Origin: a bacterium
Lineage (GTDB): Bacteria; Patescibacteriota; Gracilibacteria; JAUYGZ01
Length of the DNA: 25,203 bases
Reading direction: 5' to 3'
Assembly: GCA_030699855.1 (NCBI GenBank)
Contig: JAUYKR010000108.1
Span: forward strand, 1-25,203
The notes under the pieces were generated by a model. That model searched no databases. It was not told the DNA's origin and saw nothing but the letters and a program-made list of their open reading frames with translations. Positions 2,149 through 12,345 of this stretch are shown here, one piece after another. Each line of letters starts with the position of its first letter. The first letter of the stretch is position 1. The position numbers and the translations under genes were made by a program.

Positions 2149-2311
2149 GGAGGGGGAAGGGGTTAGTATTTTTGAAGCGAGGACTGCCGATGGCCAAATT
2201 AACTTGTTCAGTTTTATTTGGTTGAAGGTGCAACTGAAGTTAGCAACTTTGACTTTTGGGGAGGGGTAATGGGCAATCCACAGCGAAAAAATACTAACCC
2301 CTTCCCCCTCC
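2149..2311 (-). repeat. Copy 1 of the arm-DR-cargo-DR-arm intergenic element (163 bp)
   Basis: Perfect 25-bp inverted repeat (2149-2173 / 2287-2311) enclosing 113 nt. On the minus strand the core reads TCGCTGT-GGATTGCC...GGCAGTCC-TCGCTTC. It matches the copy 3 core at 93/113 without gaps (manual count). Confidence 0.9.
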
Positions 2312-2314
2312 CAA

Positions 2315-3853
2315 TCAGTGCTTAAATGCTCTTTTACCGGTAAAAACCATCGGGATACCCAGTTCATCGGCCTTGGCGATGACTTCCTGATCGCGGATGG
2401 AGCCGCCGGGTTGAATAATGGCGGCTATCCCGTATTTGGCGGCCTCCTCGACCGAGTCGGCAAAGGGGAAGAAGGCGTCGGAAGCCAGCACTGAACCCTT
2501 GGCCCGTTCGCCGGCCTTACGGACGGCGATTTCCGTCGAATCGACCCGCGACATCTGACCGGCGCCAATGCCCACCGTGGCCTGATCTTTAGTGAGAACA
2601 ATAGCGTTGGATTTGACGTGCTTCACCACTTTCCAGGCGAACAGGAGGTCATTGATTTGAGCTTCGGTCGGACGTTTGGACGTGACATACTGCAAATCCG
2701 CGAGAGCGACGATAGACGTATCGGCATCCTGGGTGATGTAGCCGCCGGAAATTTTCTTGATGTCGAAGGTTTGACCCAAAGGGCAAAGCTCCCCGACTTC
2801 CAATATCCGCAGGCGGCGGCTATCTTTCTCCAATTGTCTGAGCGCCCAGGGCTCGTAGGAGGGAGCCACGATCACCTCGACAAACAACTTTCTTTTTTCC
2901 ATCTCTTCGGCAATTTCCAGGGTCACGGGCCGGTTGAGAGCGATGATCACGCCAAAGGCCGAGCGAGGATCGCAGTCGAGAGCATGGCGAAAGGCCTCGA
3001 GGAGAGAATCATGAGTCGCCAGCCCGCAGGGGTTGGCGTGCTTGACGAAAGAAACGGCCGGCTGAGCGAATTCACGAACCATGTTGAGAGCCGCGTCGGC
3101 ATCCCAATAGTTGAGAAAACTGAGGCCCTTGCCTTCCAGTTGCCTGCAGCTGATCAGGGCCGACTGTTGGCTTTCTTGAGGTATTCGCCAGGCGTCCGAT
3201 CGCTTTTGGTGCGGATTCTCGCCATAGCGCAGCTGTTGGACGTGTTCGGCAGGAAAAAGCCGCAGATGACCCTCGGAGAGATATTTGGTAATGGCGCTGT
3301 CGTATTGAGCGGTGATCCAGAACACTTCGGTCGCCAATTCTTTTCGGGTTTCCGGCAAGACATAGCCCCGATAGTTGCGGAGCTCGACCAGCAGTCGCTC
3401 GTACCAGTCCGGCGAGGGAACGGCAGCAACAGACTGGTGGTTCTTGGCGGCCGAGCGCAGCATGGAAGGCCCGCCAATATCGATCTGCTCGATCACCTCG
3501 TCGAAGGAAGCGCCGCTAGCCACGGTTTCTTGGAAGGGATACAAATTGACCACCACCATGTCGATCAAACCGATGTTTTGTTCGACCAAGGTTTTGAGGT
3601 GCTGATCATTCCCGCGCAAAGCCAACAAGCCACCATGGATAGCCGGATGGAGGGTTTTAACCCTCCCGTCGAGCATTTCCGGAAACCCGGTGTAGTCCTG
3701 TACGGCCGTTACTTTGAGACCGGCTTCGCGAAGTACCTTCTCGGTTCCCCCGGTCGAGATAATTTCATAGTCAAATTCGTTTTGGAGAGCGCTCGCGAAT
3801 GCGACGATTCCCGTTTTGTTGTGGACGGAGATCAGGACTCGTTTGGAGGCCAT
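2315..3853 (-). CDS. purH: Bifunctional AICAR transformylase / IMP cyclohydrolase
   Basis: LISVHNKTG, ISTGGT, GRVKTLHP, IDIGGPSMLRSAAKN, LRYGENPHQ, KHANPCG, GQMSRVDS, ASDAFFPF, IIQPGGSIRD, RAFKH. Confidence 0.98.
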   Translation of the reverse strand: MASKRVLISVHNKTGIVAFASALQNEFDYEIISTGGTEKVLREAGLKVTAVQDYTGFPEMLDGRVKTLHPAIHGGLLALRGNDQHLKTLVEQNIGLIDMVVVNLYPFQETVASGASFDEVIEQIDIGGPSMLRSAAKNHQSVAAVPSPDWYERLLVELRNYRGYVLPETRKELATEVFWITAQYDSAITKYLSEGHLRLFPAEHVQQLRYGENPHQKRSDAWRIPQESQQSALISCRQLEGKGLSFLNYWDADAALNMVREFAQPAVSFVKHANPCGLATHDSLLEAFRHALDCDPRSAFGVIIALNRPVTLEIAEEMEKRKLFVEVIVAPSYEPWALRQLEKDSRRLRILEVGELCPLGQTFDIKKISGGYITQDADTSIVALADLQYVTSKRPTEAQINDLLFAWKVVKHVKSNAIVLTKDQATVGIGAGQMSRVDSTEIAVRKAGERAKGSVLASDAFFPFADSVEEAAKYGIAAIIQPGGSIRDQEVIAKADELGIPMVFTGKRAFKH

Positions 3854-3917: not shown

Positions 3918-4065
3918 GAGGCGGAAAGGGGGGTTTAATTTTTGAAGTGAGGACCTTCGAAGCGAATAGCGCATCGAAGCCTCTTTGTGACACAGGGCTT
4001 ATCTTTATTCATCTCACGTCCAAATCTTTTCCACAACGAAAAAATCAAACTCCCCTTTCCGCCTC
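3918..4065 (-). repeat. Copy 2 of the arm-DR-cargo-DR-arm intergenic element (148 bp)
   Basis: 26-bp inverted repeat with 24/26 matches (3918-3943 / 4040-4065) enclosing 96 nt. On the minus strand it reads TCGTTGT-GGA...GTCC-TCACTTC. The arms resemble those of copy 1; the interior is unrelated. Confidence 0.8.
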
Positions 4066-4084: not shown

Positions 4085-5107
4085 CTACTGTACGTCAGCA
4101 ATGGAAATCAAGGCTCCACCGTCCTTATCGATTTCGACGAATTGTCGCTTCTTCTCCGACTTCCAGGAACCGGTGTTGAAATACACACCATCGCCAAGCT
4201 GTTTGAAGCCAGCCTTGTGGGCGTGGCCGAACACCACGTAGGCGTAGTCCTCGCCCTCGATATACTGCTTGGCCAAGCCCTCTAATTTTTGGCTGCAATC
4301 AATCTTCTTTTCACTGACATACTGGGCAAAGTGCAGGGCTTTTTCCGCGTAACTGGCATGCTGCTTGAGCAGGTCGGCCTGCCCCCCTTCCAGGCCGATC
4401 TTTTGGATAAGCTGAGCGATGATTTTCCCGTTCGCCTCCACCTTTTTCTTGGATTTAAAGTCTTTGGCCTCAGAAAAATCGTCGTACTGATGGCCATGGC
4501 TGGCGTAGATATTGAGCGGTTCGTTGGAATAGTCGTAGGCAAAGACGATAGGCGCGCTGAAAAACTTTTGCCCAACCAGCAGGCTGATAAAGCAATCGTG
4601 ATTGCCCACCAGATAGGTCACCTGAACCTCTTGAGCCAGACGGCTGAGGCGGTCGAAGACCGGTTTGTAAAGCAGGTACGTGTGGAAGACATCGCCCTTG
4701 AGCATTTCGATCATGTCCCCCACCAGCACCAGCTCGGTGGCGTTTTCCTGGGCGTAGTCGAAGAATTTCATCAGATCGCTGATTAAGTCCGGCGGCGTTT
4801 CCACCGACAGGTGCAGATCGCTGATGAAGAGCACCCGGTCGGCTTTCTTCTTGGGCGGATTGATGGCCTTTTCCAGTTCGTGGAAGTAAGCATGCTGGGT
4901 ATTGACCGTGTACAGGACCAACGCCCCCTGGCGAACTTTATTCAAGACCCCCTGCTTCACCATGGCGTTGAGTTCGCGGTGAGTAGTTCCGGGAGAAGTC
5001 TTGAGCTGCTGGGCGATTTCCAGGCCGTAAAGAGGCTGTTCAAGGTCTTTGAAGAACATCTTGAGCATCTTCAGGCGGATCTTGGAATGGGTCAACCAGG
5101 TAAACAT
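4085..5107 (-). CDS. Winged-HTH fused to a calcineurin-like (LpxH/YbbF-type) metallophosphoesterase
   Basis: N-terminal wHTH (SKIRLKMLKMFF...YGLEIAQQLKTSPGTTHRELNAMVKQGVL) followed by the phosphoesterase motifs SDLH, GD, GNHD, HGH, GHAH and NTGSW. Confidence 0.85.
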   Translation of the reverse strand: MFTWLTHSKIRLKMLKMFFKDLEQPLYGLEIAQQLKTSPGTTHRELNAMVKQGVLNKVRQGALVLYTVNTQHAYFHELEKAINPPKKKADRVLFISDLHLSVETPPDLISDLMKFFDYAQENATELVLVGDMIEMLKGDVFHTYLLYKPVFDRLSRLAQEVQVTYLVGNHDCFISLLVGQKFFSAPIVFAYDYSNEPLNIYASHGHQYDDFSEAKDFKSKKKVEANGKIIAQLIQKIGLEGGQADLLKQHASYAEKALHFAQYVSEKKIDCSQKLEGLAKQYIEGEDYAYVVFGHAHKAGFKQLGDGVYFNTGSWKSEKKRQFVEIDKDGGALISIADVQ

Positions 5108-6507: not shown

Positions 6508-8091
6508 CTAGTTGTCCCCTAAAATGTCTTTGGCGACGGCCAAAGCTGCCTCCTTTAGCTGTTCGGCCGTAGGGGCAGCGATGCCGTGTAATTTTGCCGT
6601 TAAGGCCTTGCCAAGTGCTTGAGTACTAATTTTTTTTGAATCGAGAGTCACACCAGCTTCTTGTGCTACCTTTAGAGTGTCTCTCAACACACTTGCACAT
6701 TTTGATCTATTCGTCCCAAAATTGGCATCTGTGATAGCATCAAGAGCGACGGTCTTAGCTTTCTCCAGATTATTAGTGCCATCTTGTGGAGGTGTCGCCG
6801 CCTCCGCGGCAGCGGCTCTTTTGGCATCCGCAGCGGCCTCTCTGAGTTCGCGTAAACGGTTGCGAAACTGACTCTGGCTTTCTCCTGGGCGTTTTCCTTG
6901 CTGGATAGCCTGCTGGAGAGCTTGTTCAGCTTGGGTCACAACGGGCTGGCCGTCGGAAGCAGGCTCAGGAGCTGGTTGAGGTTCAGCCGGTTGCTGAGCG
7001 GGAGGAGCAGGCTCAGGTTCAGCCACGGATTCTGGAGCAACCGAAGCAGCGCCTTCTTCTGCAGGCGCCTCCTCGTCACCGGCGGGAGGTGGAGCCTGCA
7101 CGCCGGTAGCTGAAGTGACCGGTACAGAAGAGGCAGAATTTGCATCAACAGCGGCAGCACCTTCAGAAGCTCCCTCCGCCGGAGCGTCTGCCGCAGATGG
7201 AGTATCGCCAGTCGGCCCTTCGGGCCAGAAGTGGTTGTAAGCAGAATTACCACCTACCGGCAGCCCGGAAAGCGTTAGGAGAATAACAACCTTCTGTATC
7301 CATGGGTTATTGTTGAATATCCACGGATACCTTCCTATAAATTTGATGAGCGCCATTAATGTACCTGCTTTTTTTTCCACCTCCAACAGCGGCCTCTTGA
7401 ACTCAATTCCCACGCTTGTGAGCTTGTCCAAAGTAAGGTCTCGCAACATGCCCACGGAGACTTCGTCACCGGCTGTTTTCGTCAAGATAAGACCTAGTTC
7501 CTTAGCATGTACTCGAAGCGGATTCTTGCCAATATGGGCGCCAATTCTGCCCCTGATCCCTGGCGAGGTAATACCGAGGGCTCGGGAAACTTCGGCATAG
7601 GGGATTTTTGTGGCGCCGCGATGCTCTTCCAGCAAGGCGGTTAATCTGTCATTAAAATTTTTTTCTGCCTCTTTTTTGATCCTCGCTACTTCATCAGGTT
7701 CTAAAGCACCATCGGAGGAACGTGGGGATGCGTCCGAAGCTGGAGCTGAAGACACGACTGGAGAAGCTGGAATGGGTGGGCGTGGCAGACTATCGCCTGA
7801 GTCTGAATTCCACAGGCTGAGTTCATCATCATCTAATTCGAAATCAGGCACCTCGTCGTCAAAATTTATAATCCCATCATCAGCTTCTACCAGCCTTGGC
7901 TCATCAGCCAGCCGTCGTACGTCATCGGCATTGAACTTCATGGACAATCCATCGCGAAAACCGCGCAATTCACCCTGGGAAACCAGTTTTTTCAGTTCCT
8001 CTTCGTCGATTCGGAGCTCACTCAAAACATCTTCAAAGCTCATATATTCCGGAGGTCTGGAACCTGGCGCTGAAGAAGGGCCGGATGACAT
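6508..8091 (-). CDS. Hypothetical protein: excisionase/MerR-like HTH, acidic linker, second HTH-like segment, probable TM, Pro/Ala/Glu-rich linker, novel C-terminal helical domain
   Basis: YMSFEDVLSELRIDEEELKKLVSQGELRGFRDGLSMKFNADDVRRL (HTH_17-like); IPYAEVSRALGITSPGIRGRI; hydrophobic WIQKVVILLTLSGLPVG; C-terminal domain aligns with that of 8164-9669. Confidence 0.75.
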   Translation of the reverse strand: MSSGPSSAPGSRPPEYMSFEDVLSELRIDEEELKKLVSQGELRGFRDGLSMKFNADDVRRLADEPRLVEADDGIINFDDEVPDFELDDDELSLWNSDSGDSLPRPPIPASPVVSSAPASDASPRSSDGALEPDEVARIKKEAEKNFNDRLTALLEEHRGATKIPYAEVSRALGITSPGIRGRIGAHIGKNPLRVHAKELGLILTKTAGDEVSVGMLRDLTLDKLTSVGIEFKRPLLEVEKKAGTLMALIKFIGRYPWIFNNNPWIQKVVILLTLSGLPVGGNSAYNHFWPEGPTGDTPSAADAPAEGASEGAAAVDANSASSVPVTSATGVQAPPPAGDEEAPAEEGAASVAPESVAEPEPAPPAQQPAEPQPAPEPASDGQPVVTQAEQALQQAIQQGKRPGESQSQFRNRLRELREAAADAKRAAAAEAATPPQDGTNNLEKAKTVALDAITDANFGTNRSKCASVLRDTLKVAQEAGVTLDSKKISTQALGKALTAKLHGIAAPTAEQLKEAALAVAKDILGDN

Positions 8092-8127
8092 ATTTATAAA
8101 GAAATGAGGTATTTATCCTTTCTTGAA

Positions 8128-8156
8128 ATTATACCATATTCTTATTCGCTTTTCAA
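8128..8156 (-). promoter_or_regulatory. sigma70-type promoter for 6508-8091
   Basis: Minus strand TTGAAA-17 nt-TATAAT with an extended -10 (TGG TATAAT), 36 nt upstream of ATG 8091. Confidence 0.8.
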
Positions 8157-8163
8157 ATCCCGA

Positions 8164-9669
8164 TTAGGGGATTTGGAAGTAGAGCTTGAGGGTATCGATC
8201 GTCCCGCCAAGCACTCGCCTGACCAGGCATTGTACGGCTACCACTATTCCTTCTTCGCTCGCTTTTTCATCCTCCGGCAAGCCCTCAATTTCTTCGCCCA
8301 ATAGTGCTCCCAGCTTGGCGGTGGTCAGGGCGCTACCGTCTACTTTCAGCTTACCCTCGTTTCTGGCGGTCAGAAAGACTCCGCGCAGAGCCTGGAGAAG
8401 CTGGTAGCGGTTTCCGAAGTTTTGCCTGGCCGCGTCTTCGGCAGAGCTGAAGGCGGTGGATAGCGCATCGAACCTTTCAGCTAGAACTTGATATTTCTCA
8501 ACATCAAGATCCTCTTTCAACTGCAGTGGTCCTCCAAGAAAACCTGAGCCCAACAATCCGCCCAGTTTGAGGCTTGCCACCATCCTGGCCGTCACTCGCT
8601 CATCTTCCGGATCAACCGTTGTCGCTCCCGTATCCGTGCCCGGCACATCAAGCGCTGGCTCAGGCTGAGGTTCTGGTGTCGGTGTTGGTACCGGCTCAGG
8701 CTGAGGTTCAGGTTCTGGAGTTGGCTCTGGTTCAGGTGTTGGTTCAGGTTCGGAAGTTGGTTCAGGCTCAATTGGTAATGGACCAAAGACCGCATCATCT
8801 TCTGGCTCAGGCCCAACAGCCCCGACTGGACCAACAGGAGGATCTGTCAGCGTCAATCCGCTGGTATCAACAGCCGCGGCTGTCCCCTCGCCTGGCTCAC
8901 CGCCCACATCGGCATCATCTTCAGATAGCTCAGCCGGATTGATCCCGGCCAGGAGCTGCGCTGCCGTTCTTTGGGTAGCCATTGTCTCGATAAGGCGCAA
9001 TGTTCGTTCATCCTCCGCTTGTCTGCCCGAAGCTATGGCAGATAGATACACCAGCATGGCAATGGCGGCGACAGTCAAAATGGGAGTAACAACCTGCAAC
9101 CTCCTTTCCAGGCTCCCACGCTTTCGATTGCTTGCGGCAAGTTGCTGAACAAACTCTACCGGAACCCGCTGGCCCAGCTCGCGGAAGCGCTGGGGAATGA
9201 TCTGTTCGGCTGCGGCGACTACTGAAGACGCTTTGATGACTCCGGCATCTCGAATGAGCAAGCCCCCGTCCACCAAAGGTTGAATGGCCTGATCTGGTTT
9301 ACCCATTTCATATGGGATAGCAAGATCATCCAATATGACTTGATTTGACATGGGTTCATCGCTGCCTGCAGCTCTGGCATAGTCACCTATGCTCAAGATA
9401 CTCTTTACCTGGCTCAAAAGACTATTTCGGGTAATAGTGTCGGGATCGTCTGCCTGATCAAGATTCAAACCTCCGCCATACTCTTGTTCGAGCAGTCCCA
9501 ACACCTGAACATCGCTTATTCCCAGCATTTCGGCTGCCTCATCCACAGTTAATAGCCCATCTTCGCCCATTTGTTCCAAACGAGCCTTAACATCCCTGTA
9601 GTGGGCCGCGTCAAGGTTTCCCGCGCCTTCCGGAGCCTTACCTGTAAGTTCATCAATTTCGAAAGCCAT
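8164..9669 (-). CDS. Hypothetical protein: HTH_17-like motif, TM helix, PEPEPT-rich linker, novel C-terminal domain (paralog of 6508-8091)
   Basis: LLTVDEAAEMLGIS; TM VVTPILTVAAIAMLVYLSAIASG; (PE/PT/PQ)n linker; NFGNR...LR...LG..L..G C-terminal motif shared with the neighbouring gene. Confidence 0.75.
   Translation of the reverse strand: MAFEIDELTGKAPEGAGNLDAAHYRDVKARLEQMGEDGLLTVDEAAEMLGISDVQVLGLLEQEYGGGLNLDQADDPDTITRNSLLSQVKSILSIGDYARAAGSDEPMSNQVILDDLAIPYEMGKPDQAIQPLVDGGLLIRDAGVIKASSVVAAAEQIIPQRFRELGQRVPVEFVQQLAASNRKRGSLERRLQVVTPILTVAAIAMLVYLSAIASGRQAEDERTLRLIETMATQRTAAQLLAGINPAELSEDDADVGGEPGEGTAAAVDTSGLTLTDPPVGPVGAVGPEPEDDAVFGPLPIEPEPTSEPEPTPEPEPTPEPEPQPEPVPTPTPEPQPEPALDVPGTDTGATTVDPEDERVTARMVASLKLGGLLGSGFLGGPLQLKEDLDVEKYQVLAERFDALSTAFSSAEDAARQNFGNRYQLLQALRGVFLTARNEGKLKVDGSALTTAKLGALLGEEIEGLPEDEKASEEGIVVAVQCLVRRVLGGTIDTLKLYFQIP
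8656..8770 (-). repeat. Degenerate coding tandem repeat encoding PEPEPT/PEPQPEP
   Basis: Repeated GGCTCAGG/GGTTCAGG/GGTTCTGG units on the plus strand; GGCTCAGGCTGAGGTTC occurs twice. Confidence 0.8.
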
Positions 9670-12215: not shown

Positions 12216-12345
12216 CAGCATCACTCCCTTTTCTTTTCTTGCTGCGGACTGCCCGGTTGTAGGTCTCGTTTATTTTCCCGTTTGCTGGCGTCTCCCTGCC
12301 TGCCGGCAGGCAGGCTCGCTGCGAAAATAAAAGGGAGTGAGGCTG
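12216..12345 (+). repeat. Copy 4 of the arm-DR-cargo-DR-arm intergenic element (130 bp), in the predicted topA leader
   Basis: 23-bp inverted repeat with 21/23 matches (12216-12238 / 12323-12345) enclosing TTGCTGC-GGACTGCC...GGCAGGC-TCGCTGC. Both 7-mers are identical to those of copy 3. Confidence 0.85.
12295..12314. repeat. 20-bp perfect palindrome CCTGCCTGCCGGCAGGCAGG
   Basis: Self-complementary; a motif I recall as a common intergenic palindrome in CPR genomes. Here it is nested at the right end of element copy 4. Confidence 0.8.

Follow-up and report, generated by a model that had tools for sequence, protein, structure and literature searches.

What kind of genetic element keeps its center constant and lets its ends vary? 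This question is raised by contig JAUYKR010000108.1 of GenBank assembly GCA_030699855.1, from a bacterium of the GTDB lineage Patescibacteriota; Gracilibacteria; JAUYGZ01. In the stretch analyzed here (positions 1 to 25,203 of the forward strand, 25,203 nt; hereafter the window), four hairpin-shaped elements, termed copies 1 to 4, lie at 2149–2311 (– strand), 3918–4065 (– strand), 12216–12345 (+ strand) and 16556–16720 (+ strand). They had been pointed out in an initial annotation, and our scans confirmed these coordinates together with the common order of motifs: a long inverted arm is followed by TYGYTGY and GGA, then by an interior, then by (G)TCC and TCRCTKC, and finally by the complementary arm. 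That annotation suggested that the interiors are cargos entering the 7-nt loops of pre-existing hairpins by recombination between two 7-bp direct repeats. Our comparisons point elsewhere. Each element would be a single hairpin, composed of a 25-bp stem, a conserved asymmetric internal loop and a variable tip, and the supposed cargos would be alternative tips of that hairpin. On balance, we favor a REPIN/RPE-like mobile repeat, palindromic and non-autonomous, with a conserved center, covarying arms and an exchangeable tip, which would be copied or selected as a folded single strand and recognized at its loop in trans; we consider this reading somewhat probable.

A family of hairpins with covarying arms

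Copies were located by pattern scans of the source assembly (G000), a groundwater metagenome-assembled genome (MAG) of 1.15 Mb in 167 contigs, 88% complete. The pattern TYGCTGYGGA-N40..100-CTCGCTKC gave 29 matches (25–30 depending on pattern strictness) and, when read backward, none. Allowing at most one mismatch per motif and requiring complementary arms yielded 36 full copies. Counting three additional exact-motif copies with imperfect arms and about eight partial copies, which are degenerate or cut at contig ends, the family totals ~47 in G000. The elements are 110–165 bp long and scattered over ~30 contigs; the 36 full copies alone account for 0.415% of the assembly, and the family predominates among its perfect inverted repeats of at least 20 bp. 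The claim of a dispersed, non-autonomous family was thus borne out genome-wide, with no recombinase encoded nearby.

The arms differ from copy to copy and yet remain complementary within each copy. On average, the two arms of one copy pair at 23.75 of 25 positions, against 10.7 of 25 for the left arm of one copy and the right arm of another, and 13 copies have perfect arms. At each arm position two to four types of base pair occur, mostly three or four. Pairing ends sharply at 25 bp: position –25 is paired in 30 of the 36 copies, –26 in 15 and –27 in 10, pairing thus falling to chance level. Over the outer 19 positions, own arms pair at 18.0 of 19, and arms of different copies are identical at 6.7–6.9 of 19 (~35%), which is the random level for their composition; copies with and without a common interior class differ little in this respect on average (6.71 versus 6.87 of 19). 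The initial description of variable but complementary arms therefore stands with one qualification. The freedom of the arms is limited, in that their inner 6 bp are conserved (AWTTTY/RAAAWT) and the 5' arm consists almost only of purines (A or G) in its middle. Given that the arm ends vary and no direct repeat flanks them, the family is no MITE (miniature inverted-repeat transposable element), in keeping with its earlier characterization as the reverse of one; this judgment was made without comparison to insertion-sequence databases.

The mismatches that remain in the arms are unevenly distributed between the strands. In the orientation of the motifs given above, A:C plus C:A mismatches outnumber G:T plus T:G mismatches by 15 to 6 in G000 and by 25 to 5 in metagenome copies, or 40 to 11 when pooled (p=5.7e-5; the metagenome copies are not all independent). 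The A:C excess in this orientation indicates that the tolerated mismatches are wobble pairs on the opposite strand, which reads 5'-GMAGCGAGGAC...TCCRCAGCRA-3'. The asymmetry tracks the orientation of the element rather than the direction of the neighboring genes, as judged from few informative copies and small counts per context. Summed folding energies of the widespread interior class described below modestly favor the same wobble-tolerant strand (–805 versus –737 kcal/mol). For the 95-nt class, alifold did not clearly separate the two strands (–13.2 versus –14.5). Taken at face value, these substitution patterns indicate that a folded single strand, RNA or DNA, is under selection. The almost purine-only 5' arm fits a transition type of change that passes through wobble intermediates (A-U, G·U, G-C).

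The interiors of the G000 copies fall into classes of 46–49 nt (19 copies, T-rich and with little predicted structure), 66–67 nt (with a GC palindrome), 76–82 nt and 95 nt (6 copies), and are ~80% alike within a class. Measured from GGA to CTC, the interiors of copies 1 to 4 are 95, 78, 66 and 95 nt long; the three cargo lengths reported earlier, 99, 82 and 70 nt, correspond to these with four more letters counted. The inner helix GGAYTGCC/GGCAGTCC, which in the circle junction predicted by the initial annotation would form an 8-bp inverted repeat around a 7-bp spacer, is present only in the six copies of the 95-nt class, and the other classes have only GGA...(G)TCC. What all share is an asymmetric internal loop, with TYGCTGYGGA on one side and (G)TCCTCGCTKC on the other. 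Both 7-bp direct repeats contain GCTGC, which in the hairpin would pair with its own copy (G-C, C-G, T·T, G-C, C-G). The repeats thus need not be scars of recombination or duplication, and can instead be the two strands of a helix.

The GC palindrome CCTGCCTGCC/GGCAGGCAGG (12290–12312 in the window), or close variants of it (CTGCCTGCCCGCC...), is found both within the 66–67-nt interiors and at other intergenic sites, among them places on contigs C22, C23, C72 and C97 of G000. Two copies of a Doudnabacteria genome have a related CAGCCTGCCCGCC...GGCGGG hairpin added within them. G000 also harbors a second, unrelated hairpin repeat family (C119:9765–9880, C36:2713–2832 and C20:719–823), whose arms start with GAGCCTCTGAAAAACG, with stems of 14–18 bp and interiors of 69–88 nt.

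The inserted unit and its genomic setting

Three loci allow a comparison with relatives devoid of the element. The copy at C65:4681–4798 resides in frame within a gene for a 592-residue membrane protein (open reading frame (ORF) L014:367–2142). Three homologues (P0122–P0124; 44%, 38% and 24% identity) span both halves of this protein as one chain and lack ~40–55 residues precisely at the site of the element, arms included. At the locus of copy 4, the order upstream gene–radA–ComEC-like gene is kept in four same-family genomes, and their radA/ComEC-like junctions contain this hairpin neither in a filled nor in an empty form. The radA stop and the next start overlap (ATGA) in one of them, the gap of another holds a 7-bp tandem repeat, and that of a third is filled by unrelated sequence of ~230 nt. 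In the Doudnabacteria MAG (G041), a copy between convergent genes lies beside an intact intrinsic terminator, not within it, and the orthologous junction of a relative (G053) has the terminator alone. These three independent comparisons show, at the sequence level, that the unit of gain is the whole hairpin, arms included. Furthermore, no empty hairpin with a 7-nt TYGCTKC loop exists in G000. Together with the three loci, this contradicts the earlier proposal that cargos enter pre-existing hairpin loops by recombination between the 7-mers. Frames running through the element are free of stop codons in 21–32% of cases, and the lengths of 7 of the 36 copies are multiples of three. With so few stop-free frames, purifying selection would be expected to spare no more than a lone copy inside a gene, as observed.

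Gene neighborhoods of the 36 copies were derived from crude gene calls. Half of the copies (18 of 36) begin –11 to +25 nt from the stop codon of a co-oriented upstream gene, and in 14 of the 36 an opposite-strand gene ends within 22 nt on the other side; altogether, 24 of the 36 lie no more than 25 nt from the 3' end of a gene on one side or both. Their orientation is mixed, with ~10 copies in the sense and ~7 in the antisense direction between co-directional genes, ~10 between convergent and ~5 between divergent genes. The flanking genes are of the housekeeping type (purH, topA, radA, gatA, aroC, an M20 peptidase, mutY-like, trmD and a CCA-adding-enzyme-like gene), and no neighbor recurs across 70 loci. 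Some copies occupy an entire co-directional gap, as in the series aroC, element, M20 peptidase, element, mutY-like. A –10 box at a fixed distance is lacking on both strands (2 of 36 and 5 of 36 copies), as is a T-tract past the stem (3 of 36 and 2 of 36). Lacking both signals, the elements are neither stand-alone RNA genes nor canonical terminators. New copies would arise as DNA insertions and survive in short gaps at gene ends, rarely in frame within a gene.

The four copies of the window illustrate this placement. Copy 1, of the 95-nt class, has perfect 25-bp arms (2149–2173 and 2287–2311) around a motif-to-motif span of 2174–2286, and begins 3 nt past the purH stop codon (2315). Copy 2, of the 78-nt class, has 26-bp arms (3918–3943 and 4040–4065; two mismatches, one A:C and one G:T) and a motif span of 3944–4039; it is located 64 nt before the purH start and 19 nt past the stop codon of a 340-residue phosphoesterase-like ORF (4085–5107). 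Copy 3 belongs to the 66-nt class with the GC palindrome. Its 23-bp arms (12216–12238 and 12323–12345) have two mismatches, the 5' arm is atypically rich in pyrimidines, and the right motif is devoid of TCC; it lies directly upstream of topA, which is on the opposite strand. Copy 4, again of the 95-nt class, has 26-bp arms (16556–16581 and 16695–16720) with two mismatches and a motif span of 16582–16694, and its left arm overlaps the final 11 nt of radA (stop at 16566).

Several observations were made beside these loci. The ~230-nt radA/ComEC-like gap of one same-family genome (G003; L026, ~2900–3030) is structured and includes TCTCCGCAGC...GCAGCGGAGA; it bears a faint likeness to the element's GCAGC motifs and may represent a hairpin repeat that has diverged or is of another kind. 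Elsewhere in the window, a tRNA gene with an enlarged anticodon loop is present at 17632–17707 (– strand; Rfam, 57 bits), called tRNA-Ser(tga) by ARAGORN and credited with Ala identity elements in the initial annotation; 15 nt of it recur as a perfect inverted copy at 17768–17782. Two tandem ORFs of 527 and 501 residues (6508–9669, – strand) have no or marginal NCBIfam matches, and were described initially as paralogues with a helix-turn-helix motif, a membrane segment and a common C-terminal domain. Outside the window, the 16S rRNA gene of G000 (L001, contig C80) contains a 309-nt insertion scoring as a group I intron (RF00028, 62.6 bits), with a match to group II intron D1-D4 ~280 nt downstream of the gene (L001 coordinates given: 2004–2262 and 3472–3576).

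Occurrence in other genomes and metagenomes

The nearest proteins to the RadA of the window bear the labels Gracilibacteria, Peregrinibacteria and Patescibacteria. The exact motif was absent from six same-family genomes, had one chance-like match among 40 relatives including these six (genome sizes of 0.7–1.9 Mb), and had none in 400 further sampled genomes of the same phylum. A stricter pattern found true members with arms in four other genomes. The Doudnabacteria MAG has 6 copies, two other genomes of 1.1 Mb have 1 and 2 (one of these genomes is labelled Gammaproteobacteria), and a 3.9-Mb genome has 1. A scan for GCTGCGGAACTCG-N30..60-CAGTCCTCGCT retrieved 68 contigs from metagenomes of groundwater, soil, sediment, the Tara ocean samples and human gut; a few of these contigs are chance matches inside genes. 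Viral contigs gave no exact match to the core pattern, and plasmids and E. coli genomes nothing similar. Such patchiness across phyla, with 1 to ~47 copies in a genome, is characteristic of an element that spreads horizontally and not of a housekeeping RNA.

In this widespread class the interior, mostly a single simple hairpin, has ACTCG before it and CTCARACAG after it; of the latter, CTCARA was not imposed by the search. Arms of at least ~10 bp accompany 39 of 63 distinct metagenome copies; they range from 10 to 30 bp and are lineage-specific. In some lineages the arms are conserved between copies, with compensatory changes. In two GC-rich metagenome contigs, at sites between ordinary genes (L084, 6640–6840; L060, 700–820), a right motif is linked head to tail to a left one, CAGTCCTCGCTGC being followed by GCTGCGGAACTCG; this form of the element lacks arms and is circularly permuted or multimeric. 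These are either tandem arrays of 1.5–2.5 units or hairpins in which the tip helix is open and the arm helix absent, and 12 nt (TCGCTGCGCTGC) separate TCC from GGA at the junction. In other lineages, loop-like motifs repeat as nested modules along a longer hairpin. The head-to-tail and nested forms show the real module to be the conserved loop flanked by a helix on each side. They would also be compatible with an intermediate that is multimeric or circular.

The element is absent from Rfam: at the gathering thresholds of Rfam 15 the window gave only the tRNA and 20 element-bearing loci gave nothing on the elements, and permissive searches returned generic long-hairpin miRNA models only, far below threshold. 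Literature searches with core strings yielded primers only, and no paper in the collection searched links Patescibacteria with such repeats.

Competing readings and relation to known systems

In the mobile-repeat model that we favor, copying or selection would act on the folded wobble-tolerant strand, this strand being chosen because G·T or G·U wobble is tolerated on it. The acting factor would recognize the conserved loop and not the arm sequence; such loop-only recognition would allow the arms to drift by transitions via wobble intermediates while staying complementary. The candidate enzyme would act in trans. Where an element is co-transcribed in an operon, its perfect 25-bp stem should become a double-stranded RNA site for processing or stability, of the RNase III type. 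A bolder version, which we put forward as a rather improbable speculation, would have an undescribed structure-specific enzyme recognize the asymmetric loop and copy or move the folded single strand, DNA or RNA, without reading the arms. A hairpin element defined by its center in this way could cross phyla, swap its tip and build head-to-tail arrays, themselves a hint of an intermediate that is multimeric or circular.

A number of results weigh against a mobile repeat. The arms are flanked by no target-site duplication. The nearest RadA relative in the protein collection is 73% identical, leaving no close relative in which to look for strain-level empty sites, and a second sequencing run contains the same organism. 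No near-identical pair of copies exists in G000, where the best arm pair agrees at 15 of the 19 outer positions, and hence there is no sign of recent bursts. A partner enzyme was not found: G000, at 88% completeness, has no match to the Y1/HUH transposase family (PF01797), and the Y1 genes of three of the other hosts (G041, G042 and G044) have no core copy within the loci fetched. DUF559 (PF04480) is absent from G000, G041 and G042; one weak match was found in G043 and three copies in G044, the nearest ~5 kb from an element, in loci unscanned for the core. The elements were also considered as the cognate palindrome of a DUF559 nuclease, a candidate rejected on the same absences. Finally, old copies have arms at the random level of identity and still keep near-perfect stems and interiors ~80% alike, which calls for continuing selection or arm-to-arm correction at each locus and also fits a host function.

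This persistence, unlike the decay of plain selfish DNA, makes a structured RNA module serving the host the main rival. As part of an mRNA or as a small RNA, its loop would bind a protein and its 25-bp stem would be cut by RNase III, which in phage T7 has intercistronic sites; the hairpin would separate, stabilize or insulate cistrons, having grown in number by duplication and being kept at each locus. The position of 24 of the 36 copies at gene 3' ends, the several filled co-directional gaps, stems that stay near-perfect although the arm sequences are saturated, the conserved interior classes and the nested loop modules of some metagenome lineages would all suit such a role, and the wobble asymmetry is expected from selection on a single-stranded structure. 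However, the orientation is mixed, the adjacent gene often lies antisense to the wobble-tolerant strand, promoter and terminator signals are missing, and one copy is translated within a gene; in addition, close relatives do without the element at the same junctions, its spread across phyla is patchy, from 1 to ~47 copies, and no Rfam family matches it. A conserved RNA motif had been offered as the alternative in the initial annotation. We regard a host RNA as possible but doubtful; it can coexist with a mobile origin.

The other readings fare worse. A REPIN/REP family mobilized by a RAYT, that is, a Y1 HUH transposase missing from the incomplete assembly, would account for hairpin-shaped, intergenic, multicopy elements with strand-specific single-strand selection, and Y1_Tnp genes do occur in three of the four other hosts. 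Yet neither G000 nor G043 has one, those present elsewhere have no core nearby, the arms are not conserved and display no GTAG/CGTC tag to the eye in the arm listings, and a core common to several phyla is unlike lineage-specific REPIN-RAYT pairs; this explanation is very unlikely. G044 has two Y1 genes, one of which (L129, G044:C2, 904–1908) is framed by 30-nt inverted copies of AAAAAGGGGTCAGGTCCGACTACGGACTTT, an unrelated repeat, in a REP-RAYT-like arrangement. Still less credible is the micro-cassette of the initial annotation, with a tyrosine-recombinase-like core, attC-like recognition and circular exit of the cargo. Hairpins with the same loop motif do have different interiors, and arm similarity is on average independent of interior class, but the closest arm pairs have the same class. 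Likewise, the head-to-tail junctions of two metagenome contigs recall a circle junction; the predicted one has a single 7-mer, whereas those observed have 12 nt and stand in chromosomal tandem arrays. The inserted unit is the whole hairpin, with no empty counterparts, the 8-bp inverted repeat with its 7-nt spacer is limited to the 95-nt class, and among the joints listed for the source run, which cover contigs only, none falls at the 7-mers. Least probable of all is an RNA excision site resembling a bulge-helix-bulge, at which a splicing-type endonuclease would cut and a ligase circularize the interior. The loop is pseudo-twofold, and one register gives a 5-bp GCUGC/GCUGC helix with a bulge of 2 nt on each side, but this 2-5-2 geometry contains a mismatch and differs from 3-4-3, and type-B copies weaken the helix more. 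G000 encodes neither EndA (PF01974) nor RtcB (PF01139), and insertion within a gene and at the DNA level would be left unexplained.

Two further candidates concern larger units. A 23S rRNA intervening-sequence/four-helix-bundle cassette was rejected, with no PF05635 in G000. No motif pair with arms encloses an interior of 130–6000 nt, as an ORF-bearing long version would, in G000 or the fetched loci.

The family matters for several reasons. A very small, tightly packed genome of the Candidate Phyla Radiation spends ~0.4–0.5% of its DNA on one hairpin family, and the usual logic of transposable elements is reversed, the center being conserved and the ends free, in an element that can ride inside a protein. 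Identifying the recognizer of the loop would bring to light either a new class of DNA or RNA mobility guided by structure or a widespread signal for RNA processing. Understanding the family would also explain a repeat that breaks assemblies, several copies being located at contig ends, and show why open frames that run through the elements mislead gene callers.

Among known systems, the Neisseria Correia/nemis elements and the phage T7 RNase III sites are intergenic hairpins that, once co-transcribed, become double-stranded substrates of RNase III and shape mRNA ends. By analogy, a perfect 25-bp intercistronic stem should behave likewise here. Correia elements differ in having conserved terminal inverted repeats and a TA duplication, and the T7 sites are not mobile repeats. 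Integron attC sites are recognized as folded single strands; their terminal structure varies, they are strand-specific, and they lie at the 3' ends of genes. The present family resembles them in the last three features and would likewise put structure over sequence. Unlike attC sites, it has no RYYYAAC/GTTRRRY core sites, its conserved part is near the tip instead of the base, and the inserted unit is the whole hairpin; no cassette array context was seen around the copies, which are dispersed among housekeeping genes, intI itself not having been searched for. Rickettsia palindromic elements (RPEs) were reportedly described by Ogata et al. in 2000 as palindromic repeats of 100–150 bp in a reduced genome, both between genes and in frame within genes; to our knowledge, no transposase is known for them. 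The copy at C65:4681–4798 matches this in-frame residence, a likeness by description. RPEs are conserved in sequence over their full length and confined to Rickettsia, whereas in the present family conservation is limited to the loop motif, with covarying arms and hosts from several phyla.

REPINs, doublets of REPs that form hairpins, are thought to move as single-stranded hairpins (PMC3116915, PMC3337134), their REPs carry a GTAG/CGTC tag (PMC3733652), and REPIN-RAYT pairs are lineage-specific and vertically inherited (PMC3116915; bioRxiv 10.1101/2022.05.22.493013). The arms of REPINs are the conserved REPs; in the family described here the arms vary, the center is conserved and the core is shared by several phyla, with no RAYT in G000 and none framed by the core in the other hosts. 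What the two have in common is that both are short, non-autonomous, intergenic hairpin repeats, present in tens of copies, whose hairpin is kept over long persistence.

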